From the IMG/VR virus record IMGVR_UViG_2740892027_000001: a DNA stretch of 39,684 nt; one strand, 5' to 3'. The stretch comes from a virus. Its lineage: Duplodnaviria > Heunggongvirae > Uroviricota > Caudoviricetes. The notes beneath the pieces were generated by a model. The model was not told the DNA's origin. It worked only from the letters and a program-made list of their open reading frames with translations, and made no database searches. Shown here in pieces: positions 4,565-39,534 of the stretch. The position numbers and the translations under genes are program-made. Position 1 is the stretch's first letter. Each line of letters starts with the position of its first letter.

Positions 4565-4579
4565 TTACCTTTCAGGTAA
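4565..4579. promoter_or_regulatory. Operator-like palindrome TTACC-tttca-GGTAA (full ATTACC-N5-GGTAAT)
   Basis: Perfect inverted repeat; member of a motif family found at least 14 times in the window, almost always intergenic. Confidence 0.55.
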
Positions 4580-4616
4580 TTTTCAAAACGTGCTGGATAG
4601 CAAACAAATTATTTGC

Positions 4617-4636
4617 TACTGTATAAATATACAGTT
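4617..4636 (+). promoter_or_regulatory. LexA (SOS) box TACTGTATAAATATACAGTT
   Basis: CTGT-N8-ACAG with AT-rich spacer, 15/16 match to CTGTATATATATACAG; ends 6 nt before ATG 4642; an AGCAAA-N7-TTTGCT inverted repeat (4599-4617) abuts it. Confidence 0.65.
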
Positions 4637-4641
4637 ATTGC

Positions 4642-4914
4642 ATGGAGAAGATTAAGATGCAGCAGTATCACTATCCACTGGAAGAGGGATTTACCGAAAG
4701 GATTCACACGCCGGGAGGCGTCAGGTCACTGGTGGAGGGATCGCACTTGATGAAATTACTCCGGGATCTCGATAAGGATGGATTTAATGTCGATGGCCCA
4801 CTTGCCGAACTGACTGCACTGATTAACTACGTCACCAGCTCACAGATGTCTATGCGGGATCTGCAAACACATCTCGACTATTGTGCCGAACAATTACGAA
4901 AACAAACCAGATAA
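4642..4914 (+). CDS. Small antirepressor-like protein (paralog of the C-terminal domain of the Bro-N antirepressor at 5230-5925)
   Basis: 90 aa; LMKLLRDLDKDGFNVDGPLAELTALINYV...LQTHLDYCAEQL aligns with LMNLLNQLQEDGHDVSGAAAELTTMFCYI...IQTHAEYINDK of the downstream antirepressor; LexA box at promoter. Alternative start ATG 4657 with GGAG Shine-Dalgarno. Confidence 0.55.
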   Translation: MEKIKMQQYHYPLEEGFTERIHTPGGVRSLVEGSHLMKLLRDLDKDGFNVDGPLAELTALINYVTSSQMSMRDLQTHLDYCAEQLRKQTR

Positions 4915-4945
4915 GGTTTGTAATTACCAAGTGGAGTGCTTATAT

Positions 4946-4960
4946 TTACCTTTGCGGTAA
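4946..4960. promoter_or_regulatory. Operator-like palindrome TTACC-tttgc-GGTAA (full ATTTACC-N5-GGTAAAT)
   Basis: Perfect inverted repeat between the two antirepressor-type genes. Confidence 0.5.
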
Positions 4961-5051
4961 ATTTACATCGCACTCCTCTTGTGCCATAGTAATCGGGCAC
5001 TGGCAAAATCCAGTGCCGGGATTGGCGTCCCGGATTACTAAAAGGCGCATT

Positions 5052-5071
5052 CACCGCGCAAGCGGTTTTTT
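5052..5071 (+). terminator. Putative intrinsic terminator (ACCGC-gcaa-GCGGT + T7)
   Basis: Short GC stem followed by TTTTTTT; preceded by two further hairpins at 4996-5033. Confidence 0.4.
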
Positions 5072-5229
5072 TATGCGTATAGCACGGCCACATTCGTATT
5101 ATGGTGGGCTGTGTGGGGGCACCGAAAGGTGCGCCGGGTCCTTTTAGCCGGTTACGCCAACCCTGCACAGTTCACCACCAACCGATTGGCGTCGGTAGTG
5201 GTGATTAACCAGACTAAAAGGTAACCACT

Positions 5230-5925
5230 ATGACAGCTACAAAAAGCACGTCCATTTTTTCTTTCGAATCTCAAGCCGATATACGGGTAATCGTCATTAA
5301 TGGTGAGCCATGGTTTATCGCTTCAGATGTTTGTCGGGCTATAGGCATAGCAAACCATCGAGATGCTGTTCGAAAACTTGATGATGATGAGAAGGGCGTC
5401 GCTTCAACCGACACCCCTGGCGGTGAGCAAGAATCGATCATTATCTCCGAGTCAGGCCTCTACACACTGATCCTCCGCTGCCGCGATGCGGTGACACCAG
5501 GCACTATCCCCTACCGCTTTCGCAAATGGGTTACAGGTGAGGTTCTTCCTCAGATCCGCCGCACCGGAAGTTACATTAAAAACTCGCTCCCGCAGGAAGA
5601 ACGCATAAAGATGGTTGCCGACCAGGTAGCCAACGCCACGGCGTCAGCAGTAATGCAGGCGATGAAGATAGAGAACAAAACCTACAGCGCCCCGCTGAAG
5701 CCCGGCTACCGCAGCCTGATTCACTCGCCGTCTGGTGTTCTCGGCCTGACGGAAAACTCACTGCTGATGAATCTGCTGAACCAGTTACAGGAAGACGGGC
5801 ACGACGTATCGGGCGCGGCGGCGGAGCTGACCACCATGTTTTGCTACATCGTTGGTGTGAGCAAGTGCCTGCGTGATATCCAGACGCACGCGGAGTACAT
5901 CAACGACAAGGCTGGGTTCTTCTGA
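5230..5925 (+). CDS. Antirepressor with N-terminal Bro-N domain
   Basis: 231 aa; N-terminus SIFSFESQADIRVIVINGEPWFIASDVCRAIGI matches the Bro-N signature; C-terminal domain shared with ORF 4642-4914. Confidence 0.75.
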   Translation: MTATKSTSIFSFESQADIRVIVINGEPWFIASDVCRAIGIANHRDAVRKLDDDEKGVASTDTPGGEQESIIISESGLYTLILRCRDAVTPGTIPYRFRKWVTGEVLPQIRRTGSYIKNSLPQEERIKMVADQVANATASAVMQAMKIENKTYSAPLKPGYRSLIHSPSGVLGLTENSLLMNLLNQLQEDGHDVSGAAAELTTMFCYIVGVSKCLRDIQTHAEYINDKAGFF

Positions 5926-5991
5926 CGGGCGGCGGCACAGGGACGTGCCTTTAAAATAATCATTGGCGATGTGATGTAGATTCGCGTAATA

Positions 5992-6006
5992 TTACCTTAC
6001 GGGTAA
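5992..6006. promoter_or_regulatory. Operator-like palindrome TTACC-ttacg-GGTAA
   Basis: Perfect inverted repeat 39 bp upstream of ATG 6045; the 17-mer ATTACCTTACGGGTAA also occurs at 33330-33345. Confidence 0.55.
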
Positions 6007-6044
6007 ACCCCGTTTAATGGCGTTTCTATATTATGAGGTGATGT

Positions 6045-6680
6045 ATGCCACAACAACTGCTGAATCCGGCAAAGGTTACTGAAGTTTTCGCTCATCTGAA
6101 CGAAACTCCAGACAACCGCGCCCTGTATTCAGAGTTAGTGAACGGCAACGATGTCACATCTGATGTCAAAGGCGTTTCTCTGGCTCCTGGATACCGCGTT
6201 GTCCGTGTAGACGATCGTAAGAAAGGCGAGATTCCACAGGCGCACTTCGAACTGGCATTGATAAATGACCTCACCGAAGAGGTAGTGTATTACAATCGTG
6301 TCATTATCCAACCTGACAGCTATCTTAACTGCCGACCTGTCACGCAGATATTGGTATGGAGAACCCAGAAGCCTAAGCATCGTGCTGTGCTTCATGATTT
6401 CGCCGGCATCATCTTCATGAACTACCTCTTGGAACGGTACGATATCATCGTGTCAGATCGCAACCAGACTCATGAAGGCATGTCGTTCTGGCAGGCTCGC
6501 ATGTATGACGCACTGGAACTTGGCCTCCACCTCTATGGTTACGACATGATGACATGCGAGCTGATAGAGATGAATAACGAGGAAGAGCTTGAGAAAGGTG
6601 AAACCTGGTTGTGGGGTGATGCGGAAAACTTCCAAAACAGATTGGCCATAATTTCAAAGCATAAGCTGCCAATAAAATAG
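6045..6680 (+). CDS. Hypothetical protein, stand-alone accessory (moron) gene
   Basis: 211 aa, GAGGTG Shine-Dalgarno; own operator-like site upstream and strong terminator downstream; no family recognised by eye. Confidence 0.6.
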   Translation: MPQQLLNPAKVTEVFAHLNETPDNRALYSELVNGNDVTSDVKGVSLAPGYRVVRVDDRKKGEIPQAHFELALINDLTEEVVYYNRVIIQPDSYLNCRPVTQILVWRTQKPKHRAVLHDFAGIIFMNYLLERYDIIVSDRNQTHEGMSFWQARMYDALELGLHLYGYDMMTCELIEMNNEEELEKGETWLWGDAENFQNRLAIISKHKLPIK

Positions 6681-6688
6681 TTCTTTAA

Positions 6689-6709
6689 GCCCGCGGCGCG
6701 GGCTTTTTT
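6689..6709 (+). terminator. Intrinsic terminator (GCCCGCG-g-CGCGGGC + T6)
   Basis: GC-rich hairpin then TTTTTT, 9 nt after the stop of ORF 6045-6680. Confidence 0.7.
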
Positions 6710-6745
6710 GTGTCTGCGGATTCCCGCCCTGGCGGCGGTGGCATT

Positions 6746-6774
6746 CGTTAAAAACAAGGCCGCGAAAGCGGCCT
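6746..6774 (-). terminator. Intrinsic terminator on minus strand (AGGCCGC-tttc-GCGGCCT + TGTTTTTAA)
   Basis: Hairpin directly abuts the GTGACATGTCAC palindrome and follows the stop of ORF 6783-7079. Confidence 0.55.
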
Positions 6775-6786
6775 GTGACATGTCAC
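6775..6786. repeat. 12-bp perfect palindrome GTGACATGTCAC (copy 1 of 3)
   Basis: Identical 12-mer at 24324-24335 and 26589-26600; overlaps the TGA stop of ORF 6783-7079. Confidence 0.7.
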
Positions 6787-7079
6787 GTTCCTTTTCTGAA
6801 TGATAGCCATTCGAAAAATGATGACATTCCACCGCAGACAATAGCAAAGATGATCCCACCAAAGAAGAGAAGGCCAGCCTGCCACCACTCCCACCGCCAT
6901 ACATCCACAGCGCCAACCATACCAACAATCGCTCCAACAAATGGAATATAGCTCACGATGAAAGCAATGGGGGCTGCAATTATCCAGTGCAATCCCCACC
7001 ATGATTCAAGCCCAGCCATAATTGCTGCCAACTGAAAAAGACCAACGACGATATAAACAATGAATCCTATAGCTTGCAT
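6783..7079 (-). CDS. Small integral membrane protein
   Basis: 98 aa, about three hydrophobic helices; between internal virion protein genes and the antirepressor island. Confidence 0.5.
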   Translation of the reverse strand: MQAIGFIVYIVVGLFQLAAIMAGLESWWGLHWIIAAPIAFIVSYIPFVGAIVGMVGAVDVWRWEWWQAGLLFFGGIIFAIVCGGMSSFFEWLSFRKGT

Positions 7080-7274
7080 GTAGTCACCTATTTACCCAGT
7101 AAAAATCAGAGGCCTCCCCTCAATAAGGCTTGCAACAAGAACTACTCCCTGCACAACAAAGATGAACCAGCAAATAGCTTGAGTCTGAGGGTTAAGAAAA
7201 TATTTGTAGCGGTCAATAAATAACAGCCCACCAGAAATTATCACACTCAAAATAATTAAAAACACAACACTTCC

Positions 7275-9749
7275 TTATTGCGGAGTGACATCCTGAGGTC
7301 GCCACCAGTATGTCTGGTTAAACTCTTTCTTCGAACGTTGCTCCATTTTACGCAAATAGCCTGGTGAAAAATACTCCTGCATCTGGTTAAAGATCATGTG
7401 ATCAAGAGCTGCCTTCAAGTACCAGAGATTCGCACCTGGCATCAGCCCTTTCCCAAGTTTCACCAGATCACCACCAGTCTGCTCGTTCTTCCCTTCCACA
7501 GCATTTAATGGTATGCCCTGAGCTATCTTCACTACGTCATCAATCAGGCCAGCTACCGGGCCAAGCATCGACGCCAGCGCGCCGCTTCCGTACCTAGTGT
7601 GATCTGACAATAAAAAGTCACCGTAAAGGCCAAGACCACCACCTTTCAGTAGAGCACCAAGCCAAAATTTAGCAGCATCTTCTCCTGTCATCTCGCGAGG
7701 ATTACGACCAGACGCAAGGTCGTTAAGTTGCTGCGACAAAGCGCCAAGAATGGTCGTACTGGCAATAAACGTCGCAATATATGCCGCACGCCCACCAGCA
7801 GACGGCATACCCATAGCGCGTGACCAGTGACGCATAACCACCGAGATAGGGAACGATTTAAACAGGAAAACACTTCTCGTTAATTCACCTTTCCATGTTC
7901 CACGCTGAATACCAGAACCGGTTATCAGTTGCTCACGTGCTCCCGGTGTAATAACAGCCATATCAACTTCTTCAGTTACGGCACCGAGCAGTTTACGCAT
8001 TGCCTCAAATTTCACGCGTTCAGGCTCACCAAGATGTTTAACTGCTGAATCAGGGATACGCATAATGCTTTCCGGTGTCAGCATCGTATTATTACCGTTC
8101 CCCCAGTCCTCCTGTTGCGCCAGCTTCCATACGCTCCAGTCTGTGTCAGTAATCCCTTTGCTTTTCAGGATACGAAAATCAGAGTCATCGAGGCTACGAA
8201 GGTCTGGTGTCCGTGACACTACTTCTCCCAGGCTTCCCATCATGGTTACGCCATAGGCGCGCTTGTGCGCATCTGACCATGCTGTAAGCCCACTGGCACG
8301 CATTACCGCCGTTGCTGCCCAACGAGACACTGACGGCCCCATATTATCCATCGCCCAGCGGTTAACGCTGCCAAGTAGAGATTCCATTGCCAGACCAGCG
8401 CGGCGCGCCCGCGCAAGTTCTGTACGGTTCGTTGGGTCCATAGCTTCAAGCTGGTTGCGGAATAACTGGTTCATTGGAAGGTTGGTCACCTTCGCAGACA
8501 GATACATGGTTCCAAGATCAGAGAACGATGATAGCAACGCGGATCCGAGTCTGCTGGCAACCAGCCAGTTGCGGATATTGTCAGACCATCGCGCGATGTG
8601 CGGATTCGCTACAGGCTGTGTCTTTCCGGAAATAAAGTTGTACAGATTCTCTGTGTTGTTCGCCAGCCGCTCGACTTTACCGGTTTTACTCGGGTTAGCT
8701 GTTGCCGTTTCTGCCTTAACCTGATCAAGAAGGGAGCGGAAAACATGATCGGGGTTTGGACCATATGTTTCCACCAGAGCAATATCTTTACTGATACCTT
8801 CCAGGTGACCGACCATGATTTCCCATAGAGAGCGATCGCCATAAAGTTGTTGATATTGGAGATAGGAATCAGCATCTTTGAAATGTATCTGTCGTGATGC
8901 ATTACCACGGTTAGCACGTGCGCCGGAAATTCGCATTCCGGTATCAGTAAGCTTATTCAGCCCACCAGTAGCGATCGTGTTATAAGCCTCTCCAAGAAAT
9001 GCAGACAACTCGGCACCGTTCATCAGTTGTCCATCGGCTCGGGTATAATATTTGCGATCCAGCTTACCTATAACATCGTTAACCCACTTATCCTTTGATA
9101 CCGCCCCAACCTTTTCCATAGAATGATGTTGAGGGATCCCCCAGTTTTCGAGATAGCCAATGTCCCCACCAGCATCATTAAACCGGCGGCGCAGCAGCTC
9201 TGTAACTTCTCTCCACGCCTTAGCACCTTTTCTTGCTTTAGCATTGCCAGTATTTTGCCCCCGCATTTCATATACCAGGTCACGTACGCCCGCTTCATCT
9301 TCAAACAGACCAAAAAAGCGAGGATCAACTGCTTCGAATGCCTCCTGCAATTGACTCAATGCATAATCACGGGTGGCTTTTGTTCTGGATTCAACAGAGA
9401 GGAAATTAGATTTACCGTCTGCATTAAAAGCTATAGTACGGTTAAGAGCGCCAAGTTTCCCATCAGCCCCTTGATAGCTATTGATAAATTTATCCAATCT
9501 CTGACGCGCGGCTATAGTGAGAGCCACACGACGTTTCTTTAATGCCGCTTCTCGCTGTAATTCTTCAGATGCCAATTGTGCTGCTCGATATAGCCGCTCT
9601 GATTCGGAAAGTTGTCGCCACGACATCGGGTCATCACGAGCAATGGAGCGCATATTTCGATAAATGCGGTCTTCAATGTTCTGTATTTCTCGCGCCGTTA
9701 ACATGCGCTGCGCCGCCTGCTGAACCGCCTGTATACATTCCTGTCTCAT
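7275..9749 (-). CDS. Internal virion (ejection/core) protein, large
   Basis: 824 aa; position in a T7-like gp14-gp16 block after the tail tube genes; no enzymatic motif confirmed. Confidence 0.55.
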   Translation of the reverse strand: MRQECIQAVQQAAQRMLTAREIQNIEDRIYRNMRSIARDDPMSWRQLSESERLYRAAQLASEELQREAALKKRRVALTIAARQRLDKFINSYQGADGKLGALNRTIAFNADGKSNFLSVESRTKATRDYALSQLQEAFEAVDPRFFGLFEDEAGVRDLVYEMRGQNTGNAKARKGAKAWREVTELLRRRFNDAGGDIGYLENWGIPQHHSMEKVGAVSKDKWVNDVIGKLDRKYYTRADGQLMNGAELSAFLGEAYNTIATGGLNKLTDTGMRISGARANRGNASRQIHFKDADSYLQYQQLYGDRSLWEIMVGHLEGISKDIALVETYGPNPDHVFRSLLDQVKAETATANPSKTGKVERLANNTENLYNFISGKTQPVANPHIARWSDNIRNWLVASRLGSALLSSFSDLGTMYLSAKVTNLPMNQLFRNQLEAMDPTNRTELARARRAGLAMESLLGSVNRWAMDNMGPSVSRWAATAVMRASGLTAWSDAHKRAYGVTMMGSLGEVVSRTPDLRSLDDSDFRILKSKGITDTDWSVWKLAQQEDWGNGNNTMLTPESIMRIPDSAVKHLGEPERVKFEAMRKLLGAVTEEVDMAVITPGAREQLITGSGIQRGTWKGELTRSVFLFKSFPISVVMRHWSRAMGMPSAGGRAAYIATFIASTTILGALSQQLNDLASGRNPREMTGEDAAKFWLGALLKGGGLGLYGDFLLSDHTRYGSGALASMLGPVAGLIDDVVKIAQGIPLNAVEGKNEQTGGDLVKLGKGLMPGANLWYLKAALDHMIFNQMQEYFSPGYLRKMEQRSKKEFNQTYWWRPQDVTPQ

Positions 9750-9754
9750 TTAAT

Positions 9755-14067: not shown

Positions 14068-14079
14068 CTTATTATCCCC

Positions 14080-23260: not shown

Positions 23261-23350
23261 ATCAATGACTCCGTACGCAATTAAATTATTACCAATTTAA
23301 CCACATATGATTTATTTATCGTAGGTAGTTGACATTTAACGCACGAATTA

Positions 23351-23365
23351 TTACCTTTAAGGTAA
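23351..23365. promoter_or_regulatory. Operator-like palindrome TTACC-tttaa-GGTAA
   Basis: Perfect inverted repeat in 400-bp non-coding region between portal gene and tRNA; TTGACA at 23330-23335 nearby. Confidence 0.5.
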
Positions 23366-23687
23366 CCAAAGAGCTCATTCCGGTTACTAACCTGACTGGC
23401 TTGTCGTTAAATTGAACAGGTGGAGTGAGCTTTTATTTTGAGCAGTACGGCGTATGGCACATGCGACGATAGCGGTCTGGATACGTTTAAGGGGCACCCT
23501 CCCTTGCTCGGGCAAACGAACCAGGTAGCCGGAATGTGCAAGTCGAGCGGTTTTATTCCGCGCACGGGGATACACCATCCCGGCGATTCGGTGTGACGCC
23601 TCGGAAGAGACGAGGGTACAACGATGAGAGCATTTATGGAGCCGCGACAAAGTGTGGCGCCTTAACAGGCTAAGTGCTCTCAGCGTT

Positions 23688-23764
23688 GTGGCATTAGCTC
23701 AGTCGGACAGAGCAACCGCCTTCTAAGCGGTTGGTCGCAGGTTCGAATCCTGCATGCCACGCCA
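23688..23764 (+). tRNA. tRNA-Arg (anticodon UCU), phage-encoded
   Basis: 77 nt cloverleaf folded by hand: 7-bp acceptor stem GTGGCAT/ATGCCAC, D-arm GCTC/GAGC, anticodon stem ACCGC/GCGGT with loop CUUCUAA, T-arm GCAGG-TTCGAAT-CCTGC, 3' GCCA. Confidence 0.85.
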
Positions 23765-23962: not shown

Positions 23963-24319
23963 ATGAACGACCAGCAAATCGAAAAAGAAATCGTTGAGAA
24001 AGGCAAAACCGCTCCGCGAGTTACGCCTCAATATATCGAAAGCATCATTCTTGAAGAGCATTTCTTTACTGCTTATGACGGCATTCGTGCTGCCAATATG
24101 GGCGTTGGCGATTCATGGACAGCGCATAAATCTACAGACCTCCTGACTTTCTGCGTACTGGTGCTGAAGAATGGCTTCACCGTCACCGGAGAAAGCGCCT
24201 GTGCAAGCACGGAAAACTTTGATGCAGAAATTGGTCGGAAGATTGCCCGGCAGAATGCTGTAAACAAAATCTGGATGCTCGAAGGTTACTTGCTGAAGCA
24301 GAAGCTAAGCGAGCAATAA
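23963..24319 (+). CDS. Hypothetical protein (accessory gene in tRNA island)
   Basis: 118 aa, strong Shine-Dalgarno; plus-strand gene inside minus-strand late operon; family not recognised with certainty. Confidence 0.6.
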   Translation: MNDQQIEKEIVEKGKTAPRVTPQYIESIILEEHFFTAYDGIRAANMGVGDSWTAHKSTDLLTFCVLVLKNGFTVTGESACASTENFDAEIGRKIARQNAVNKIWMLEGYLLKQKLSEQ

Positions 24320-24323: not shown

Positions 24324-24335
24324 GTGACATGTCAC
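24324..24335. repeat. 12-bp perfect palindrome GTGACATGTCAC (copy 2 of 3)
   Basis: Five nt after the stop of ORF 23963-24319 and immediately before terminator 24340-24366. Confidence 0.7.
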
Positions 24336-25885: not shown

Positions 25886-26478
25886 TGATTGCCATCCTGA
25901 CGTTCTTTCAGTCTCTTCCTGGCTGCCGCTATGCGATCAGCAATTGTCACATTCACATTAACATCCAGGCGTTCTTTGAATGCGTTGACGTCGACGTGCT
26001 TACCAATCAGTTCGAGGTTCTTCACCTTGTCAGGCCATTTAATTTTTTTGAGGATTGTCTCTATCGAATCCTCGTTCATGTTCATGATGGTCGATGACAG
26101 ATCAAAGCCGCTAAGCGTAGTGCGCCAGATTTTCGGCCACTCTCGGATTGGCTTAAGGCTCCCATCGTCGTTGAGGATGTCGATCACGTCCATCTGGTCG
26201 ATCTCCACCAGACGCATGAGAACGTAATCAGCACTGACGCGCATTCGTTTGTTGCGCTCCTCCATCAGCTCGGCAATCCGTTTTTGAATGCGTTCATCGC
26301 GCATCATGACACTGGCTTTAACTGCTGCTGTATTTGGGGAGAATCCTGCGTTAATCGCTGCCTGAGTCTGGTTTTCAGGCGTTTTGATGTATGACTGGCA
26401 ATAAGCCTCCTGCATTGCTGTTAGTGGCTTAAATTGCGTTGATTTGCGTTTATAGGTTTTAGGTTCAGCAGGCATCAT
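25882..26478 (-). CDS. Terminase small subunit
   Basis: About 198 aa from ATG 26478 (GGTGG Shine-Dalgarno); the track ORF extends to a TTG at 26556, but that extension contains an intrinsic terminator, so the shorter start is preferred. Confidence 0.65.
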   Translation of the reverse strand: MMPAEPKTYKRKSTQFKPLTAMQEAYCQSYIKTPENQTQAAINAGFSPNTAAVKASVMMRDERIQKRIAELMEERNKRMRVSADYVLMRLVEIDQMDVIDILNDDGSLKPIREWPKIWRTTLSGFDLSSTIMNMNEDSIETILKKIKWPDKVKNLELIGKHVDVNAFKERLDVNVNVTIADRIAAARKRLKERQDGNQ

Positions 26479-26520
26479 AACCACCGTGGTAATAGTTACC
26501 GTTGTGGTAATAGTACCATG

Positions 26521-26579: not shown

Positions 26580-26608
26580 AATCTACTCGTGACATGTCAC
26601 ACTATTAA
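26580..26608 (-). promoter_or_regulatory. Candidate late promoter (TTAATA-N17-TAGATT) with palindrome in spacer
   Basis: Weak sigma70-like hexamers at 17-bp spacing, read on the minus strand; the GTGACATGTCAC palindrome fills the spacer; terminator lies 30-60 nt downstream. Confidence 0.3.
26589..26600. repeat. 12-bp perfect palindrome GTGACATGTCAC (copy 3 of 3)
   Basis: Overlaps the TGA stop of ORF 26597-26938, about 40 nt upstream (minus-strand sense) of terminator 26521-26547. Confidence 0.7.
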
Positions 26609-28610: not shown

Positions 28611-28611
28611 A

Positions 28612-30204: not shown

Positions 30205-30207
30205 GAT

Positions 30208-30222
30208 TTACCCCTGAGGTAA
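30208..30222. promoter_or_regulatory. Operator-like palindrome TTACC-cctga-GGTAA
   Basis: Perfect inverted repeat 4 nt upstream of the start codon of ORF 29860-30204. Confidence 0.5.
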
Positions 30223-30269
30223 TTAAAAACCACATAAGACACGAAATCAATAGATCTTAGAACATTTTA

Positions 30270-30284
30270 TTACCTAGCAGGTAA
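30270..30284. promoter_or_regulatory. Operator-like palindrome TTACC-tagca-GGTAA (full ATTACC-N5-GGTAAT)
   Basis: Perfect 6-bp arms; in the intergenic region downstream of the P-like gene. Confidence 0.5.
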
Positions 30285-30321
30285 TTATCAAGACGTAAAA
30301 AAATGCGCTATCGCGCTGGTA

Positions 30322-31937: not shown

Positions 31938-31952
31938 GATTAATCTCCGCTA

Positions 31953-32216
31953 TCAGCTTGAATGTTGTGGGGAGGAATTAATCATGATCTGCTTAATCTC
32001 TGCCCTGATACGACGGTTTGATTCCATGGTGCACTCAACACAGTGTCCGTTGTAAACCCAGCGTTCACTGTCATGTCCGTGCTTACATGTTTTTCCGGTG
32101 TAGTAGCGTTTAAGTCCGCGCTTTGCGGCATCAATACGTGTAATGATTTCCATGGTAAGCCCTGTTATTAGTATTGGGATTACGGTCATTTTGTGCTGAC
32201 ACAAAAAAAAGATCAA
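31953..32216 (-). CDS. Small zinc-finger protein (cII-like position)
   Basis: Up to 87 aa (true start probably internal); CKHGH...CVEC motif; between Cro-like and O-like genes. Confidence 0.4.
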   Translation of the reverse strand: MIFFLCQHKMTVIPILITGLTMEIITRIDAAKRGLKRYYTGKTCKHGHDSERWVYNGHCVECTMESNRRIRAEIKQIMINSSPQHSS

Positions 32217-32233
32217 CCAGATTTGGTTTTTTA

Positions 32234-32276
32234 TTACCTTTGAGGTGCGAATAGATATGAAAAGACCGCCGGGTGG
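32234..32276 (-). promoter_or_regulatory. Terminator-like hairpin after cro-like gene plus degenerate operator-like site
   Basis: Minus-strand hairpin GACCGCC-acc-CGGCGGTC + TTTTC at 32259-32276; imperfect TTACC-tttga-GGTGC at 32234-32248. Confidence 0.35.
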
Positions 32277-32303
32277 CGGTCTACAGAGGGTTGTGGCTGG
32301 ATA

Positions 32304-32534
32304 TCATGAGTAGAAGAAGTATGCCAGTTCTGCTTTTGAGCGCAGCCATTGTCTTGTTTTACAGGCTTTAAAAAGCCCATTCATCAATACTTTACCTGGC
32401 ATTTTGCGCTTACCTGTTAAGTGAGTCTGGATATAGTGACTCGTCGTTCCGGCTTCCTGTGCGAAGGCTTCACGCTCATCCGGAGTAAGTGCAAGCCAGT
32501 GCTTTTTGAAATCGAAATGTCCGTTATCGCTCAT
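32304..32534 (-). CDS. Cro-like HTH regulator
   Basis: 76 aa; helix-turn-helix-like EAFAQEAGTTSHYIQTHLTGKRK; first gene of the rightward early operon, divergent from the repressor gene across the operator cluster. Confidence 0.55.
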   Translation of the reverse strand: MSDNGHFDFKKHWLALTPDEREAFAQEAGTTSHYIQTHLTGKRKMPGKVLMNGLFKACKTRQWLRSKAELAYFFYS

Positions 32535-32570
32535 AGCTATTGCCTGATATTTATTTCAGATAATAAATAT

Positions 32571-32633
32571 TCACCCATAAGGTAACAAAAATCAAGGATA
32601 GTTACCTATGGGGTGCATTTACCTGTTGGGTAA
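32571..32633. promoter_or_regulatory. Immunity-region operator cluster: three sites between divergent cro-like and repressor genes
   Basis: TCACC-cataa-GGTAA (32571-85), TTACC-tatgg-GGTGC (32602-16) and perfect TTACC-tgttg-GGTAA (32619-33); a -35/-10-like TTGATT-N17-GAATAT for the cro-like gene overlaps the first site. Confidence 0.6.
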
Positions 32634-32688
32634 TATTGCTTTAAATTGAATCATCTACTGATTCATATACGAGGCGATTTTCCAGAAA

Positions 32689-33273
32689 ATGAAAAGTATC
32701 CAGGACGTCCGCAGGCAAAATCTCAACGACTTGATCGACCGTGAATTCAATGGTGTTCAGACGCGGATGGCAGAAAAACTTGGAACTCAGGCAAATCTGG
32801 TAAACCGCTGGGCTCTTGGTAAGAAGGTTATCGGCGATCAGGTTGCGCGAAAAATTGAAGCTGCCGCCAATAAACCCCGTAACTGGCTTGATATCGATCG
32901 CTCGCTTTCTCAGGAAGGTTTTCAGCCTGTCGGCCCAAGCGACATTGGCCAGCTGGCGGCTCACAACCTGGAACGCTGGATGAGCGAAAGCCGCGACCTT
33001 TCAACACAGGGAAAACTTCACCGCGCATCCGGCGTAGCCCAGGTGACAATCAGCCGCCTGTTAAACAATGAGGTCAGCGTTTCCATTTCCACCCTGGAGA
33101 ATGTTGCATCTGCATTCGGGCGTCACGGATATGAACTACTGATTCACCCGCACGACCCTGCAACTATCAACTATGACCGCTCGCGCTACGCATTGTTACC
33201 TGAAACAGAGAAAGCAAAGATCGAAAGTTACATTGAATTTGTCATCAACCAGAACGAAAAAAGCAAACAATAA
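32689..33273 (+). CDS. Prophage repressor candidate (two HTH domains, no S24 peptidase domain)
   Basis: 194 aa; HTH at QTRMAEKLGTQANLVNRWALGKK and a second at KLHRASGVAQVTISRLLNNEV; divergent from the cro-like gene; followed by a strong terminator. Confidence 0.6.
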   Translation: MKSIQDVRRQNLNDLIDREFNGVQTRMAEKLGTQANLVNRWALGKKVIGDQVARKIEAAANKPRNWLDIDRSLSQEGFQPVGPSDIGQLAAHNLERWMSESRDLSTQGKLHRASGVAQVTISRLLNNEVSVSISTLENVASAFGRHGYELLIHPHDPATINYDRSRYALLPETEKAKIESYIEFVINQNEKSKQ

Positions 33274-33294
33274 AACTATAGTTTTCAGCAAGTA

Positions 33295-33317
33295 AGCCGC
33301 CTCATGGCGGCTTTTTT
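33295..33317 (+). terminator. Intrinsic terminator (AGCCGCC-tcat-GGCGGCT + T6)
   Basis: Strong hairpin plus TTTTTT 22 nt after the repressor stop codon. Confidence 0.7.
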
Positions 33318-33330
33318 ATTGCCAGATAGA

Positions 33331-33345
33331 TTACCTTACGGGTAA
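33331..33345. promoter_or_regulatory. Operator-like palindrome TTACC-ttacg-GGTAA
   Basis: Perfect site immediately after the repressor terminator; same 17-mer as at 5991-6006. Confidence 0.55.
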
Positions 33346-33364
33346 TTTTTTTAACTCATATCTA

Positions 33365-33407
33365 TTGACACCAAACCAAATAAGCATAATTATTACCTCA
33401 ACGGTAA
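33365..33407 (+). promoter_or_regulatory. Candidate early-left promoter (consensus -35 TTGACA at 33365-33370) overlapped by operator TTACC-tcaac-GGTAA (33393-33407)
   Basis: Perfect TTGACA; AT-rich CATAATTATT in the -10 region with ambiguous spacing; operator overlaps the -10/+1 region; plus-strand operon starts downstream. Confidence 0.4.
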
Positions 33408-33426
33408 CAGACCGAGGTAACAAGTT

Positions 33427-33576
33427 ATGCAGTGGAAAATCATCAACGGTTGGTACTGCGTTACTGCATGCGGATTCATGAGCTGGAAGTTCCGCACCTT
33501 ACAGGAAGGCATCAAGTGGGCTTTCATCAGCAAAGAAGCTCGCGATGTGGCAAACGATAACGAGATATGGGAGTAG
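33427..33576 (+). CDS. Small hypothetical protein (first ORF of early-left operon)
   Basis: 49 aa (below the track's 60-aa cutoff); GAGG 8 nt upstream of ATG; co-oriented with the downstream operon. Confidence 0.3.
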   Translation: MQWKIINGWYCVTACGFMSWKFRTLQEGIKWAFISKEARDVANDNEIWE

Positions 33577-33584
33577 GTTAGCAA

Positions 33585-34619
33585 ATGAGTGAATTATCAA
33601 TCATCGAAATCACACCAGACATGGCACCAAGAATTTACGTTGAAAAAGGGCTGGAAAAGTTTCTCGAGCAGATCCGTGAAGGTGTTAATGAAGTGCCTGA
33701 CATTAGCACAGACAAAGGCAGAAAGCGCATTGCATCTCTGGCTGCGAAGGTTTCAAGAAGTAAAACAGCGGTAGAAAAACCAGGACGTGATTATCTGAAA
33801 CGCCTGAAAGAACAGCCGAAAGTAGTTGAAGCAGAGTTACGACGCTTCGTAACCGAATGCGATCGGCTTCGTGATGAAGTACGCCGCCCACTCACCGAGT
33901 GGGAAAATGCTGAGAAATTACGCACTGAAGCACTGCAACAACGCCTGACAAATTTGCGAGCACTAGCTGACGTGATCGATCTCTCCGGAAACTACTTGCC
34001 ATCATCTGATATTCAGGAACGAATTCAAGAGGCTAAATCAGTAGCACTTGATGAAAGTTGGCAGGAGTACGCAGCAGAAGCTGGAGTAGCCAAGGATTCA
34101 ACCATCCAGAAACTGGAAGAATCACTCGCAGTAGCTCAAAAACGCGAGCATGAAGCCGCTGAGCTGGAGCGACTTCGCAAAGAAGCGGAGGAAAAAGCGC
34201 GCATTGAGCGAGAAGAGAATATGCGACGGGAAGCTGCTGAACAGGCCAGGCTCGAAGCTGAACAAAAAGCGAAAGCTGAAATTGAGGCTGCGGCACGCCT
34301 GGCGGCGGAAGAAAAAGCACGTGCTGAAGTAGCAGAACGTCAGCGAATTGAAGCAGAGCAGCGTGCACGACGCGAAAAAGAAGAAGCCGTTGCCGAGGAA
34401 CGCCGACGCCAAGAGGCGGCAGAAAAAGCCCGCCTTGACGAACAGAAGCGTATCGCCGACGAAGAAGCGCGCCGAGCTGCAGATAAAGAGCATCGCCGTA
34501 CCGTTAACCGCAGAGTAATCGCAGATCTGATAGCCCAAGGCATTCACGAAGAATTCGCGCAGAAAGCAATGTTGGCTATCGCTGGCGGCAAAGTGCAGGA
34601 CGCGTATATCAAATATTGA
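33585..34619 (+). CDS. Coiled-coil protein with Glu/Ala/Lys/Arg-rich repeat region
   Basis: 344 aa; globular N-terminal about 160 aa then long AEEKARxEAEQ-type helical repeats; upstream of recombination genes. Confidence 0.55.
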   Translation: MSELSIIEITPDMAPRIYVEKGLEKFLEQIREGVNEVPDISTDKGRKRIASLAAKVSRSKTAVEKPGRDYLKRLKEQPKVVEAELRRFVTECDRLRDEVRRPLTEWENAEKLRTEALQQRLTNLRALADVIDLSGNYLPSSDIQERIQEAKSVALDESWQEYAAEAGVAKDSTIQKLEESLAVAQKREHEAAELERLRKEAEEKARIEREENMRREAAEQARLEAEQKAKAEIEAAARLAAEEKARAEVAERQRIEAEQRARREKEEAVAEERRRQEAAEKARLDEQKRIADEEARRAADKEHRRTVNRRVIADLIAQGIHEEFAQKAMLAIAGGKVQDAYIKY

Positions 34620-34626
34620 GGTGGGT

Positions 34627-34926
34627 ATGAACGTTAATCAGCAGAAAAATCTTCAAAAAATCATGCTGGCATTCGACAAGGACTACCGCCTGTCAGAACA
34701 GCTATATGACCGACAAGTTGAACTGATCGATAGCATCCGGCTTCATCAACTGGCCTCAACTTTTGACGCTGTAACAGGCAAAGGAGTTCGCCAGGAAGTA
34801 CTGGAGGCTGCTAAAGACAGCCCTGAGTTCGAAGAACTGATGGATGCCTACCGGCGAGAGGCAATGGCAATTATCGCCCGCTGGGATCTGGCGGATCGGA
34901 TTGATGGGCAGAGGGAAGCGGCATGA
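34627..34926 (+). CDS. Hypothetical protein
   Basis: About 99 aa from ATG 34627 (GAGGTG Shine-Dalgarno); 4-nt overlap with the exonuclease gene. Confidence 0.5.
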   Translation: MNVNQQKNLQKIMLAFDKDYRLSEQLYDRQVELIDSIRLHQLASTFDAVTGKGVRQEVLEAAKDSPEFEELMDAYRREAMAIIARWDLADRIDGQREAA

Positions 34927-35744
34927 AACCGGGAATTTATTTCGACATCAGCAATGAGGACTACCACGCCGGTGACGGCGTGAGTAAGTCGCAACTGGAC
35001 ATGGTTGCCAAGAATCCGGCGCTTCTTAAATGGGTTCAGGCAGCACCAGAAGACGAAGAGAAAAAGTCTGCACTGGATATGGGAACCGCATTGCACTGTC
35101 TGCTTCTGGAGCCTGGAGAGTTCGACAAACGCTTCATTGTTTCACCGAAATTCGATCGTCGGACGAAACAAGGTAAAGCTGACGAAGAGGCATTTCTTCG
35201 TGATGTGGCGGATATGGGGATTACGGTACTTGATGCCGAGCAGTGGCGGAAACTGGAGCTGATGCGTGATAGCGCAATGGCTCACCCGGCGGCACGCTGG
35301 ATGCTGGAAGCCCCTGGTTACTGCGAAGCATCAATGTACTGGAACGATGAAGAGACGGGGGAGTTGTGCCGAATTCGTCCAGACAAATGGCTGAACGAGC
35401 ACAACGTGATCGTCGACGTGAAAAAGGTTGCAGATATGGACCGTTTTGCACGCCACATCGAGGAATTCCGCTACCACGTGCAGGACGCAATGTACCGCGA
35501 AGGCGCAATGAGGGTTACTGGTCAGCCGCATGGTTTTTTCTTTCTTGCCGTGAGCGAAAGCATTGATTGTGGTCGGTATCCGGTACGCGTGTTCGAGCTG
35601 GATGCGCAGGATGTCGATGCCGGGCACGCTCTGTTCCGCCGGGATCTGAATACCTATCACGAATGCCGCATCAATGATGAATGGGGCGGTGTGGAAATCA
35701 TTAAACGCCCTGAGTGGGCACGCAAACAGGATATGTACATATGA
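34923..35744 (+). CDS. RecE-like exodeoxyribonuclease VIII family protein (PD-(D/E)XK exonuclease)
   Basis: 273 aa; IRPDKW...IVDVKKV resembles the D...D/E-x-K nuclease motif; stop overlaps the recT start (ATGA). Confidence 0.6.
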   Translation: MKPGIYFDISNEDYHAGDGVSKSQLDMVAKNPALLKWVQAAPEDEEKKSALDMGTALHCLLLEPGEFDKRFIVSPKFDRRTKQGKADEEAFLRDVADMGITVLDAEQWRKLELMRDSAMAHPAARWMLEAPGYCEASMYWNDEETGELCRIRPDKWLNEHNVIVDVKKVADMDRFARHIEEFRYHVQDAMYREGAMRVTGQPHGFFFLAVSESIDCGRYPVRVFELDAQDVDAGHALFRRDLNTYHECRINDEWGGVEIIKRPEWARKQDMYI

Positions 35745-36682
35745 GCAACGACATCGCAAACATCAACGCACCAGTAGACACAGCAATCGCTGGAACTGCT
35801 GCAACTATTTTCAGCCCAGACGGCTTGAACCAACTGATGAAATTCGCCGAGGTAATGGCGCAAAGCCGCGTAACGGTACCGGCGCACCTCGCCGGGAAAC
35901 CAGCTGATTGCATGGCCGTGGCAATGCAGGCTGCGCAGTGGGGAATGAACCCGTTTGCCGTGGCTCAGAAAACCCATGTTGTGAACGGCACGCTAGGTTA
36001 TGAAGCCCAATTAGTAAACGCAGTTATCTCAACGATGTCGCCAACAAAAGATCGCATCAACTACGAGTGGTTCGGGCCGTGGGAACGCGTGATCGGTAAG
36101 TTTGTTGAGAAAACATCCAAAAACGGCAATCCATATATCGCACCAGGCTGGACTCTAAAAGACGAAGAAGGCTGCGGTGTTCGCGTATGGGCAACCATGA
36201 AGGGCGAGGATCAACCTCGAGTGCTTGAGTTAATGCTGTCTCAAGCACAGGTAAGAAACTCCACACTTTGGGCCAGTGATCCGAAACAACAACTCGCATA
36301 CCTTGCGACAAAACGCTGGTCTCGCCTGCACTGTCCTGACGTAATCATGGGCGTCTACACCCCAGACGAATTACAGGAAACGGCACCGCGCGTTGAGCGA
36401 GACATTACTCCGCAAACGACCACTGCTGCGGGAATGAACAGTCTGATCAACGCTAAACCAGCGAAAAAGCCTGATGAGCAAACGCGTAAAGCGGATAGCC
36501 GTGATCCAGAAGAAATGCTGATGGCCTTTACCAGCGCAGCGATGAATTACAGCACTGTCTCCGAACTGGATAAGGCTTACAAATACATTGCACAAAAACT
36601 TTCAGATGATGACGAACTGCTGGCAAAAGCCACCGACGTTTACAGCGTTCGTCGGGAAGAATTAAACGAAACATCTATGTAA
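35741..36682 (+). CDS. recT: RecT-like single-strand annealing recombinase
   Basis: About 313 aa from ATG 35741, translationally coupled to the exonuclease gene; size and context fit RecT. Not motif-verified. Confidence 0.6.
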   Translation: MSNDIANINAPVDTAIAGTAATIFSPDGLNQLMKFAEVMAQSRVTVPAHLAGKPADCMAVAMQAAQWGMNPFAVAQKTHVVNGTLGYEAQLVNAVISTMSPTKDRINYEWFGPWERVIGKFVEKTSKNGNPYIAPGWTLKDEEGCGVRVWATMKGEDQPRVLELMLSQAQVRNSTLWASDPKQQLAYLATKRWSRLHCPDVIMGVYTPDELQETAPRVERDITPQTTTAAGMNSLINAKPAKKPDEQTRKADSRDPEEMLMAFTSAAMNYSTVSELDKAYKYIAQKLSDDDELLAKATDVYSVRREELNETSM

Positions 36683-36731
36683 CCACCACCGCGGCGCCAC
36701 GCGCGCCGCACTGCAACCAAGAGAGGTATTT

Positions 36732-36980
36732 ATGAAAGGTGCATTAGGTAAGAAGGAACTCCTGGCGGTGGTGCCACTGTCATGGAGCACTATCGACCGT
36801 ATGGAGCGCGCAGGGGAATTTCCTAAACGCTGGTATATCACCGATAAACGCTGCGCATGGAACCGTGATGAAGTTGAGCGTTGGCTTGATGAACGTCAGG
36901 CAGCAAGCCCGGCAGAGTTCCAGGGTAAAAAACCTCCTGTTCAGCAACGTGTATATCGTCCCGTGAGCAACGCGGCATGA
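36732..36980 (+). CDS. AlpA-family HTH protein (excisionase / regulator candidate)
   Basis: 82 aa; LSWSTIDRMERAGEFPKRWYI...WNRDEVERWL matches the AlpA-type pattern S-T-I-Y-R-L-x-x-G-x-F-P ... W-x-x-x-E-V-x-x-W. Confidence 0.6.
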   Translation: MKGALGKKELLAVVPLSWSTIDRMERAGEFPKRWYITDKRCAWNRDEVERWLDERQAASPAEFQGKKPPVQQRVYRPVSNAA

Positions 36981-37089
36981 GTGTGCTGCTAAGGCACTGG
37001 ATCAAATGGTCAGGATGGTACTTATTCCTGGCCTCTGTTTCAGCATGGCTTTATCTGCTGGCATTAATTTTCAGAGAGGGTTGGATTAA

Positions 37090-37389
37090 GTGAGAAAGTT
37101 AAGCCGACTTGAAAAATATCACATGAATAAGGTTTCAATGCGCAGTCCGTCAAAGATTGTCGCCGTTACTCCTGCGGCGATAGAGATCGAAAAACGCGCG
37201 ATTGAAAGAGAGAAAAAAGGGCAGTTCCGCATTGCCGCTCACCTTTGGCTTCAGTGTATGGATGTTGCTTCTGGTGATGTTGAGCGTGCAAGGATCGCGG
37301 TTCGCAGGGACCAATGTATCACAAAAGGTAACGGCCTTCGCCGTGGAGACTATAGCGGTATAGGATGTTGCGGGGTGGTTTGTGACTAA
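37090..37389 (+). CDS. Small regulator-like protein (PerC/ANR-like?)
   Basis: 99 aa; EREKKGQFRIAAHLWLQCMDVA resembles the helical core of small PerC/ANR-type regulators (weak, from memory). Confidence 0.3.
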   Translation: MRKLSRLEKYHMNKVSMRSPSKIVAVTPAAIEIEKRAIEREKKGQFRIAAHLWLQCMDVASGDVERARIAVRRDQCITKGNGLRRGDYSGIGCCGVVCD

Positions 37390-38032
37390 GAAATACACAC
37401 TAATCTATGCAGATCCACCCTGGGTATACCGGGACAAAGCCGCAGATGGTAATCGCGGTGCCAGTTTTAAATATCCGGTTATGAGTGTGATGGATATCTG
37501 CCGCCTTCCTGTGTGGGATTTGGCCGATGAAAACTGTCTGTTGGCCATGTGGTGGGTGCCAACACAACCACTCGAAGCGCTAAAAGTTGTTGAAGCCTGG
37601 GGATTCCGTCTGATGACCATGAAGGGCTTCACGTGGATAAAATGTGGTAGTCGACAACCAGATAAACTGGTTATGGGTATGGGGCACATGACTCGCGCCA
37701 ATAGTGAAGATTGCCTGTTTGCGGTAAAGGGAAAACTACCTACGCGCATTAATGCAGGGATCGTTCAGTCATTTACCGCACCGCGGCTTGAGCATTCAAG
37801 AAAACCAGATATCGTTCGTGAAAAACTTGTGCAATTGTTAGGCGATGTTTCTCGCATTGAACTGTTCGCCAGACAGACGTCTCATGGCTTCGATGTTTGG
37901 GGTAATCAGTGCGAAGACCCGGCAGTGCAACTACACCCTGGATACGCGTTGGATATTGCCGGATTAACAAATGCATTCAGCAATGCTCCGCTGTCACCAA
38001 CAGACAACCAGGGGCGGGAGCGTGCAGCATGA
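37382..38032 (+). CDS. MT-A70 family DNA N6-adenine methyltransferase
   Basis: 216 aa; catalytic DPPW motif (LIYADPPWVY) near the N-terminus; GTG start overlapping the upstream gene. Confidence 0.8.
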   Translation: MTKKYTLIYADPPWVYRDKAADGNRGASFKYPVMSVMDICRLPVWDLADENCLLAMWWVPTQPLEALKVVEAWGFRLMTMKGFTWIKCGSRQPDKLVMGMGHMTRANSEDCLFAVKGKLPTRINAGIVQSFTAPRLEHSRKPDIVREKLVQLLGDVSRIELFARQTSHGFDVWGNQCEDPAVQLHPGYALDIAGLTNAFSNAPLSPTDNQGRERAA

Positions 38033-38223
38033 ACAGGGCATCACCAGCAGATTTAAGGAAATGCCTTGAAACTGCAAACATGCTTGCACACAGCGGGATC
38101 AGGTTTGTTCCAATTCCCGCTGTCACTGATGCTGAATTTGCAACGCTGTCAGCAATATTCGCAGACAAAATTGAATCACTGGCAGCAGAAGCCGAGATGG
38201 AAGAAAATCAGCAGAACTATTAA
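38029..38223 (+). CDS. Small hypothetical protein
   Basis: 64 aa from ATG 38029, which overlaps the methyltransferase stop (ATGA); last gene of the plus-strand operon. Confidence 0.45.
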   Translation: MNRASPADLRKCLETANMLAHSGIRFVPIPAVTDAEFATLSAIFADKIESLAAEAEMEENQQNY

Positions 38224-38226
38224 ACG

Positions 38227-39477
38227 TTATTCTCCCGCCATCCACTTCTCAAACTTCGACGGGGAGAACGGAATCAGATCCGTATGCTCCCCGTCAATCC
38301 AGGAATCAATCATATCTGCCCACTGCTGCAACATGTAGGCGCGCTGTCTGGCGTATTCCGCTTTGTTATATACGGCGCGCACACCTTTCTGCTCATGTGC
38401 CAGAGCCTTTTCAATCCAGTCTGAAGGATAACCAGCCTCATGCAACAACGTACTGGCTGTACGGCGCATATCGTGTACGGTGAAGTCCTGAATATGCTCA
38501 CCATCTTCATTTATTATTTTCACCGTTCTGTCGATCAGTGAGTTCAACGCGGCATTAGATAATGGCTTCCGGAAATTGTAACGACCAGGAACCAGGTATT
38601 CACTTCCACCAGCGCACATCTGCAACCCAACCAATATATCCTGTGCTTGTTTAGGCAGGTAAATAACGTGCGCCCGGCTTCCCTTCATGCGGTCTGAAGG
38701 AATTGTCCATGTCCATTTTTTAAAATCTATTTCATCCCACGTTGCATTGGTGAATTCGCCTTTACGAACCATAGTGATAAGCACCAGCTTTAAAGCCATT
38801 TTCATAGTGCCCATAGCACCAATGGCATCCAGCGTGCGGAAGAACAGACCAATTTCTTCTGGTGTCAGTGTTCGCTCTCGTGGTTTAAATATGGCGATAG
38901 ACGAAGGTTTAATGTCAGCCGCAGGATTAAACAAACCATGACCACGGTCATTGGCATGACGGTATACGCTGCTGATGATCTCCCTGGCCTGCACTGCTGT
39001 TGCCAGGCCGCCGCGTTCGACAATCCGGTCACACAAATCACGAACCATCGATGTGGTAATTTCAGTCATCATTTTGTTGCCAAGAACCGGAAGTATGTCA
39101 CGGTCGATCACCGCCTGCTTCATTGCGCGGGTACTGTCAGCCAGGATGACATGTTTCATATAACTGTCGGTATGTACCGCAAACGTCTCGGCACCACGAA
39201 TCTTTTTGATACCGTCACGTTTAGCCGCAGCCGGTGACTGGCCTGCTTTAAGCAGCTTCTTTGCAGCAATCAGTTCTTCTCGCGCTTCTGCCAGGCTGAT
39301 ACCGTCACGCCCATACTGCCCGATTACCAGTGTTTCGCGGCGACCGTTGATACGGTAGTCATAGCGAAACGAGACCGTGCCTGACGTAAGCACAGCTACA
39401 TACAGCCCGTCACGATCGGAGACCTTGTACAGTTTGTCCTGCGGCTTGAGGTTTTTTAATTTTGTATCGGTAAGCAC
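38227..39477 (-). CDS. int: Tyrosine integrase, P4-type (N-terminal arm-binding domain)
   Basis: 416 aa; N-terminal LTDTKLKNLKPQDKLYKVSDRDGLYVAV...FRYDYRINGRR arm-binding domain; C-terminal catalytic region with HDMRRT and terminal Tyr; next to the right att repeat. Confidence 0.9.
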   Translation of the reverse strand: MLTDTKLKNLKPQDKLYKVSDRDGLYVAVLTSGTVSFRYDYRINGRRETLVIGQYGRDGISLAEAREELIAAKKLLKAGQSPAAAKRDGIKKIRGAETFAVHTDSYMKHVILADSTRAMKQAVIDRDILPVLGNKMMTEITTSMVRDLCDRIVERGGLATAVQAREIISSVYRHANDRGHGLFNPAADIKPSSIAIFKPRERTLTPEEIGLFFRTLDAIGAMGTMKMALKLVLITMVRKGEFTNATWDEIDFKKWTWTIPSDRMKGSRAHVIYLPKQAQDILVGLQMCAGGSEYLVPGRYNFRKPLSNAALNSLIDRTVKIINEDGEHIQDFTVHDMRRTASTLLHEAGYPSDWIEKALAHEQKGVRAVYNKAEYARQRAYMLQQWADMIDSWIDGEHTDLIPFSPSKFEKWMAGE

Positions 39478-39519
39478 AATTCACCCGTATAGAAACCATT
39501 TTCATGACGGTATGAGAGT

Positions 39520-39534
39520 ATACCTTTAAGGTAA
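39520..39534. promoter_or_regulatory. Operator-like site ATACC-tttaa-GGTAA upstream of int
   Basis: One mismatch to the TTACC-N5-GGTAA consensus; 43 bp upstream of the integrase start codon. Confidence 0.45.

Follow-up and report, generated by a model that had tools for sequence, protein, structure and literature searches.

A genome-wide set of palindromic operators, probably read by an SPC32H-type repressor, in an epsilon15-like temperate podovirus

A palindromic element, ATTACC-N5-GGTAAT, is repeated along the IMG/VR virus record IMGVR_UViG_2740892027_000001, a stretch of 39,684 nucleotides (here called the window, meaning the whole of the DNA analysed) that belongs to Uetakevirus and represents an epsilon15/phiV10-like temperate podovirus. 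Fifteen copies of the element (12 strong and 3 weak but conserved) were retained in 10 regions, and these palindromes are almost certainly protein operators of the phage immunity system. The explanation that fits them best, and that is considered very likely on sequence grounds, is that they are bound by Rep, a 194-amino-acid (aa) repressor of the type known from phages SPC32H and epsilon15, which would be released from the DNA by an antirepressor, Ant, induced in the SOS response. The operator network itself is already known, being annotated in epsilon15, a member of the same genus.

Operator motif and host control

Perfect TTACC-N5-GGTAA sequences were found at ten positions in the window (4565, 4946, 5992, 23351, 26496, 30208, 30270, 32619, 33331 and 33393). 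Nine of these had been listed in a preliminary description of the window, in which 26496 was overlooked; its estimate of 0.04 perfect sites expected by chance agrees with 39684/4^10. No perfect site occurred in 100 dinucleotide-preserving shuffles of the window, and TTACC-N5 ranked first when all 5-mer inverted repeats were counted without bias. With up to one mismatch, 14 matches were obtained against 0.52 expected. The extended consensus reads (A/T)ATTACC-t-t-W-a-a-GGTAAT(A/T), the dyad base being A or T in 97% of sites.

Sites were scored with a weight matrix of 19 base pairs (bp) trained on seven related genomes (phiV10, phiv142-3, epsilon15, Tyrion, SPC32H, ZX5 and PAT1; together with the window, the eight-genome set), the window being excluded from training. 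Scores in the window were bimodal: 10 sites reached at least 20 bits, followed by 39520 (17.5 bits) and 32571 (15.8 bits) and by a weak tail at 32234 (12.0), 26478 (11.0), 4333 (10.9) and 32602 (9.8 bits). As host control, 150 kb of E. coli K-12 was scanned. At 16 bits or more, 11 sites were found in the window and one in the control (2.77 versus 0.067 per 10 kb, ~41-fold), and perfect sites numbered 10 in 39.7 kb of phage DNA versus 1 in the 150 kb of K-12; the equal density in the host chromosome that would have spoken for a host factor was not seen in these 150 kb. Between 10 and 16 bits no enrichment over the K-12 control was found (4 sites in the window, 13 in the host), and weak sites were therefore accepted only if conserved in position. 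Sites 32602, 32234 and 26478 are kept in position across 8/8 genomes, with xxACC-N5-GGTAAT retained in all eight at 32234.

Two further candidates were rejected as chance sites. Site 4333 lies inside the tailspike gene, its left half is variable among the genomes and the motif is not conserved; 27191, with three mismatches and a score below 8.3 bits, has no motif at the corresponding place in phiV10 (~140 matches with up to three mismatches are expected by chance). Of the one-mismatch variants proposed in the preliminary description, 32571 and 39520 are strong sites, whereas 32234 and 32602 have two mismatches and 27191 was dropped. Its count of at least 14 copies stands, since 15 conserved sites are obtained once 26496 and 26478 are added and 27191 is removed, and so does its placement of the sites between genes and ahead of transcription units: all 15 are intergenic, and in the annotated near-twin phiv142-3 this applies to 10/10 perfect sites in a genome of which 10.3% is intergenic (P ~1e-10). 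Long direct repeats linking the operator sites were searched for and none were found.

Conservation and earlier annotation

The window is ~96% identical to phiv142-3 and ~97% identical to phiV10 over the immunity and early region. The number of perfect sites in the seven related genomes is 8–11. When sites of at least 14 bits in the eight genomes were mapped onto the window, all but two fell within 11 syntenic intergenic regions: the tailspike/ant gap, before the Bro-N gene, before the cargo gene, the portal operon, terS, the nin-like promoter (a pair), before the gp40-like gene, O_R between the cro-like and repressor genes, the early-left promoter (2–3 sites), int, and a lysis/oac site. The matrix scan of the window and its relatives that the preliminary description had proposed gave 12 strong sites in the window. 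The lysis/oac site is missing from the window because its tailspike gene continues straight into the lysis cassette. In alignments the sites appear as phylogenetic footprints, with conserved half-sites and diverged flanks.

The epsilon15 RefSeq record (NC_004775.2) contains seven protein_bind features labelled 'repressor / lysogeny', the sequences of which are the same palindrome (e.g. ATTACCATTTTGGTAAT); three of them are placed at the early-left promoter and the others ahead of terS, ahead of gp3, in the gp19/tail fibre gap and at the nin-like promoter. The feature is therefore not new. Six further sites of ~18–24 bits are omitted from that record (epsilon15 24704, 26882, 33341, 33358, 33388 and 35969), and these are the three O_R sites and the lysis-cassette, proximal nin and int sites. 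The motif string was not found in open-access full text, and the paper on phage ZX5 defines no operators (PMC9782041).

The repressor

The operators were assigned to Rep because of the classical layout of gene and operators, the curation of the epsilon15 record and the homology to SPC32H Rep, and these three lines favour the 194-aa repressor, one of the two candidates first named; Rep is very probably the principal binder of the operators. It is a homologue of SPC32H Rep over its full length (PDB 5D50_A, E 3.5e-42, residues 1–190); its Pfam matches are to helix-turn-helix families only, and no S24 peptidase or autocleavage domain was found in it. The N-terminal domain is the most conserved part (54% identity to SPC32H Rep versus 38% for the C-terminal part; 28/70 invariant residues versus 22/124 in the remainder) and fits an unchanged operator. 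In each of the 12 independent lineages examined, from Escherichia, Salmonella, Enterobacter, Raoultella, Serratia (two species) and Cronobacter, the motif was accompanied by Rep and cro-like homologues, and the Rep homologues of Raoultella, the two Serratia species and Cronobacter, which are 41–54% identical, go with the same palindrome at the same places. A search for related loci with the Rep alignment returned only matches of 99–100% identity.

In secondary sources, SPC32H Rep is described as binding palindromic sites as a tetramer that is disassembled by tetrameric Ant (PMC9638917), and its tetramerisation domain as having a fold associated with DNA looping (PMC9986798); on this account, the dimeric regulator of the preliminary description gives way to a tetramer. 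In phage ZX5, overexpression of the identical repressor lowered holin and endolysin transcripts by more than 99.9% (PMC9782041).

Separately, it was observed that the operator and the Rep N-terminal domain are unchanged in phages of six host genera and that identity drops to 38% in the half of Rep that binds Ant; Ant stays closely similar to SPC32H Ant (E 6e-47, residues 7–89), a mismatch in rate with the C-terminal part of Rep. The unchanged operator and N-terminal domain imply broad cross-immunity, which the operator set likewise predicts within the genus.

Promoters covered by operators

Operators overlap predicted sigma-70 promoters at three places, namely the early-left, nin-like and cro promoters. 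The first two are built alike, with the elements in the order terminator, distal operator, A/T tract, CTATTGA (-35), 17 bp, and a -10 whose end overlaps the proximal operator. The 62-bp spacing of the operator pair is kept without insertions or deletions, and the sequence between the two sites has diverged. A scan of IMG/VR for site pairs 62 bp apart gave at least 120 stretches, mostly contigs of ~40 kb, with two pairs ~3 kb apart; Serratia phages deviate, having spacings of 18 and 74–75 bp instead. The two early-left sites had been recognised before (33331 and 33393), as had the three copies between the divergent cro-like and repressor genes, which form a tripartite cluster conserved in position with centres 31 and 17 bp apart. 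Control of essentially every promoter by one regulator, as first proposed, is supported where operators overlap a predicted promoter; for terS, portal and int, direct control by Rep would have to be assumed from the position of the sites.

Table 1. Coordinates of the operators and associated features in the window (strand '.', palindromic site).
Feature	Coordinates	Strand	Description
tailspike/ant operator	4564..4580	.	best score, 26.2 bits; between divergent tailspike-lysis unit and ant
LexA box TACTGTATAAATATACAGTT	4617..4636	+	at ant promoter; 1 mismatch to consensus
ant	4642..4914	+	SPC32H-type small antirepressor; likely true start ATG at 4657
Bro-N operator	4945..4961	.	ahead of Bro-N::Ant gene
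Bro-N::Ant gene	5230..5925	+	231-aa Bro-N protein with C-terminal Ant-like domain; operator-preceded antirepressor candidate
cargo operator	5991..6007	.	ahead of variable cargo gene 6045-6680; mosaic junction
portal half-site	23288..23304	.	conserved ATTACC on + strand; implied centre exactly 62 bp from portal operator
portal operator	23350..23366	.	ahead of gp3/portal/structural operon
terS operator 2	26477..26493	.	weak, 11.0 bits; centre 18 bp from operator 1; abuts probable terS start codon
terS operator 1	26495..26511	.	20.5 bits; ~20 bp past terminator
nin proximal operator	30207..30223	.	overlaps -10 end, +1 and ribosome-binding site of DUF1064 gene; 62 bp centre-to-centre from distal
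nin distal operator	30269..30285	.	past replication-gene terminator
weak conserved site	32233..32249	.	12.0 bits; just past cro terminator, ahead of gp40-like/replication genes
cro-like gene	32304..32534	-	76 aa, divergent from rep
O_R1	32570..32586	.	15.8 bits; within spacer/-10 of predicted cro promoter
O_R2	32601..32617	.	weak, 9.8 bits, right half GGTGC; perfect at same alignment column in Salmonella lineage
O_R3	32618..32634	.	22.4 bits; abuts O_R2; overlaps conserved TAATAT beside rep
rep	32689..33273	+	194-aa SPC32H-type repressor; N-terminal DNA-binding domain; C-terminal HTH_3-like, tetramerisation/Ant-binding part
O_L distal	33330..33346	.	18 bp past rep terminator, upstream of -35
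O_L proximal	33392..33408	.	overlaps end of -10 (TTGACA-17-AATTAT) and +1; centre 62 bp from distal
int operator (probable)	39519..39535	.	17.5 bits; 43 bp upstream of int start; within 9-bp inverted repeat

Alternative readings

Several observations weigh against Rep as the reader of the sites. The strongest O_R sites are found on the rep side and not over the cro promoter. Among the protein-database matches and locus contexts examined, none of the Rep homologues was paired with a different operator; Rep is tied to the motif by co-occurrence only and not by covariation, because every homologue keeps TTACC-N5-GGTAA, and covariation cannot separate Rep from the equally conserved cro-like protein as binder. 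The repressor sites annotated in epsilon15 may be predictions themselves. A sigma-70 scan at the terS, portal and int sites gave no recognisable promoter. The surroundings of the int site (39500-39545) are a fully conserved region with a larger inverted repeat (TGACGGTAT...ATACCGTCA), and the epsilon15 curator placed RNase III and integrase sites, and no repressor site, at this spot; the int site may act at the RNA level besides, or instead of, as an operator.

The first of these points would suit the cro-like protein, which could be the main or a shared reader during lytic growth, shutting rep at O_R2/O_R3 or lowering the early units, much as lambda Cro shares the operators of CI. Its gene is divergent from rep across the three O_R sites and accompanies the motif in every locus examined, the protein matches the PHROG family phrog_35 'transcriptional repressor' (E 5.6e-13) and is better conserved than Rep (76% identity between the E. 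coli and Salmonella lineages), and the rep-proximal position of the strongest O_R sites is where Cro action would be expected. The epsilon15 curator, however, assigned the sites to the repressor, a role of Cro at dispersed late-operon sites is without precedent, and in ZX5 overexpression of the repressor alone silences the lysis genes (PMC9782041). Binding by the cro-like protein is compatible with binding by Rep, so that it is a possible co-reader; as sole binder it is unlikely, and a main or shared role is held to be the less probable case, one that nevertheless deserves to be kept in mind.

A mosaic-boundary or roadblock function, in which the sites would primarily mark recombination boundaries or act as stoperator-like roadblocks behind terminators and would not occlude promoters, draws on the homology to phage HEMP4 that stops at operator 5992, on three genomes that have the same operator and unrelated cargo, on the terminator-then-operator order in six or seven regions and on the missing sigma-70 promoters at terS, portal and int. 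Palindromic sites carry no orientation, however, and they overlap the -35, -10 or +1 of the early-left, nin-like and cro promoters; such boundary and roadblock effects are better seen as consequences of Rep binding than as alternatives to it, and as a primary function they are unlikely. Least probable by a wide measure is a host transcription factor or nucleoid protein recruited by the phage: the same motif does occur in phages of six enterobacterial host genera, but the scarcity of perfect sites in the K-12 control largely refutes such a factor, the Rep and cro-like genes accompany the motif in every case, and three clustered sites between divergent immunity genes are characteristic of a switch that the phage itself encodes.

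Proposed mechanism

Binding by Rep is thus preferred, and from the data above we infer the following arrangement. The operators would be binding sites of an SPC32H/epsilon15-type Rep, each 17-bp site being made up of two half-sites (ATTACC and GGTAAT; 11 bp between centres) that would be read by paired N-terminal helix-turn-helix domains. A Rep tetramer as in SPC32H would offer two domain pairs per molecule, so that one tetramer could fill either abutting sites 17–18 bp apart (O_R2/O_R3 and terS) or sites 62 bp apart (~six helical turns) that bracket a core promoter (early-left and nin-like). In the lysogen, Rep would be present at the head of nearly every transcription unit, often right after the preceding terminator, and would silence the cro-replication, early-left recombination/xis/methylase, nin-like, terminase, portal-structural, tailspike-lysis, int, Bro-N::Ant antirepressor and cargo units. 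After DNA damage, LexA would leave its box upstream of ant, and the Ant then produced would strip Rep from the DNA, upon which all units would open together, including the Rep-controlled second antirepressor as a positive feedback. More tentatively, the Uetakevirus circuit as a whole might be a single-tier one, in which a non-cleavable tetrameric Rep directly clamps every unit, among them int and the late operons for packaging, structure and lysis, by 62-bp same-face operator pairs on either side of the core promoter (small-loop repression), immunity specificity lies, if anywhere, at the interface of Rep and antirepressor rather than in the recognition of operators, and operators double as junctions at which new cargo comes under Rep control from the outset; this generalisation is offered as a speculation of rather low probability.

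Antirepressors and cargo

The LexA box at ant is the only match in the window and is conserved in 8/8 genomes, and Ant matches SPC32H Ant (5D50_E, E 6e-47). The Rep site in this gap was assigned to the divergent tailspike-lysis unit, which it probably controls in place of ant, because the LexA box holds the proximal position at ant and the Rep site lies at ~-60. The preliminary description had put operators before both antirepressor genes; this is true of 4946, which precedes the Bro-N::Ant gene, and less so of 4565, which probably serves the tailspike-lysis unit. The C-terminal domain of the Bro-N protein is 44% identical to Ant over 78 aa and belongs to the same PHROG family, which suggests a second antirepressor that would be controlled by Rep rather than LexA and would form a positive-feedback loop.

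Accessory genes behind operators had been predicted as well, and were found in the Bro-N::Ant gene and, behind 5992, the cargo gene, whose 211-aa product belongs to a PHROG of unknown function. Homology to the DNA of phage HEMP4 breaks off precisely where operator 5992-6006 ends. The window, phiv142-3 and ZX5 all carry this operator, but the genes that follow it are unrelated; the site is therefore a mosaic junction at which cargo would arrive already behind a Rep site.

Late region and further elements

A terminator followed by an operator was seen at six or seven regions. The site at 23351 had been linked to a tRNA island, a link that was given up: epsilon15 has the site, its record annotates no tRNA gene, and the site precedes gp3/portal. 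Between the terminase and portal operons lie a tRNA-Arg(TCT) gene (23688-23764) and, on the opposite strand, a gene for a 118-aa protein similar to Sf6 gene 66 (23963-24319); both are without an operator of their own and are candidates for expression in the lysogen.

A second perfect palindrome of 12 bp, GTGACATGTCAC, is present at 6775-6786, 24324-24335 and 26589-26600 (3 copies versus 0.11 expected). In the direction of transcription, every copy immediately precedes a rho-independent terminator that ends a transcription unit; 2–3 copies are present in each of the seven related Uetakevirus genomes, with aligned copies at matching positions, and the palindrome is also found at many IMG/VR loci. 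A small conserved palindrome of the form AACCA-N4-TGGTT, AAAAAACCAAATCTGGTTGATC, follows the weak operator 32234 (window 32200-32233), and a similar element, AAAAACCATATATGG, is found in the tailspike/ant gap (4514-4545) beside an ATTACC half-site; at the tailspike/ant spot the epsilon15 record annotates an IHF site.

Occurrence and use

The immunity region (32300-33420, comprising the cro-like gene, O_R, rep and the early-left promoter) was found at 95% identity or more in 540/5,426 complete E. coli genomes, mostly as a single, chromosomal copy, and relatives are also present in Salmonella, Enterobacter, Citrobacter, Raoultella, Serratia and Cronobacter. The full operator set aids the annotation of this very common prophage type and predicts the genes that are silent in the lysogen, namely those behind operators; genes without one, among them the 118-aa gene, the tRNA gene and rep itself, may be expressed there. 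The compact promoter-operator cassettes could be used for looping tests of a structurally characterised tetrameric repressor. No new kind of biology is opened by the operator network, which is an ordinary, solid feature; the new points are modest and consist of the fixed 62-bp pair design, the operators ahead of a second antirepressor and of swappable cargo, the invariance of the operator over six host genera alongside a diverging Ant-binding part of Rep, and the prevalence given above.

Comparison with known systems

Among the closest known systems is that of epsilon15, which has the identical palindrome ATTACC-N5-GGTAAT, belongs to the same genus and shares the positions at terS, gp3/portal, gp19(ant)/tail fibre, the early-left promoter and the nin-like promoter. 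It differs in that the window adds sites before the Bro-N::Ant gene and the cargo gene, both absent from epsilon15, and has no lysis/oac site, and in that the repressor of the window is only 42% identical overall to that of epsilon15 (gp38).

The Rep-Ant system of SPC32H (PDB 5D50, 5D4Z) is matched by a full-length Rep homologue without an autocleavage domain, by a small Ant that is closely similar over residues 7-89, by the LexA box at ant, and by the SPC32H genome itself, which carries the same motif at the same places. In contrast, the C-terminal, Ant-binding part of Rep is only 38% identical, and a Bro-N::Ant fusion is present in the window in addition. For the Rep of the window, assembly into tetramers and binding to operators are predicted from what secondary sources describe for SPC32H Rep.

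With lambda CI/Cro the window shares operators that are 17-bp pseudo-palindromes, three of which separate the divergent repressor and cro genes, several sites at the early-left promoter and, presumably, cooperative binding or looping by repressor oligomers. Unlike in lambda, Rep lacks a peptidase domain and would not be RecA-cleavable but antirepressor-induced, operators are also found at the terminase, structural, tailspike-lysis, int and accessory units in place of a Q/N cascade, and the half-site sequence is unlike that of lambda.

Silencing of a whole prophage by one repressor through many dispersed sites in short intergenic stretches is known from the gp71 stoperators of mycobacteriophage L5 and the conserved inverted repeats of phiC31, and the sites in the window are likewise scattered through short intergenic gaps beyond the immunity region. 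The L5 stoperators are asymmetric 13-mers that act on elongation in an orientation-dependent manner, whereas the sites in the window are symmetric with an A/T dyad base, fewer (~15), and placed at the heads of transcription units, where they often overlap promoters.

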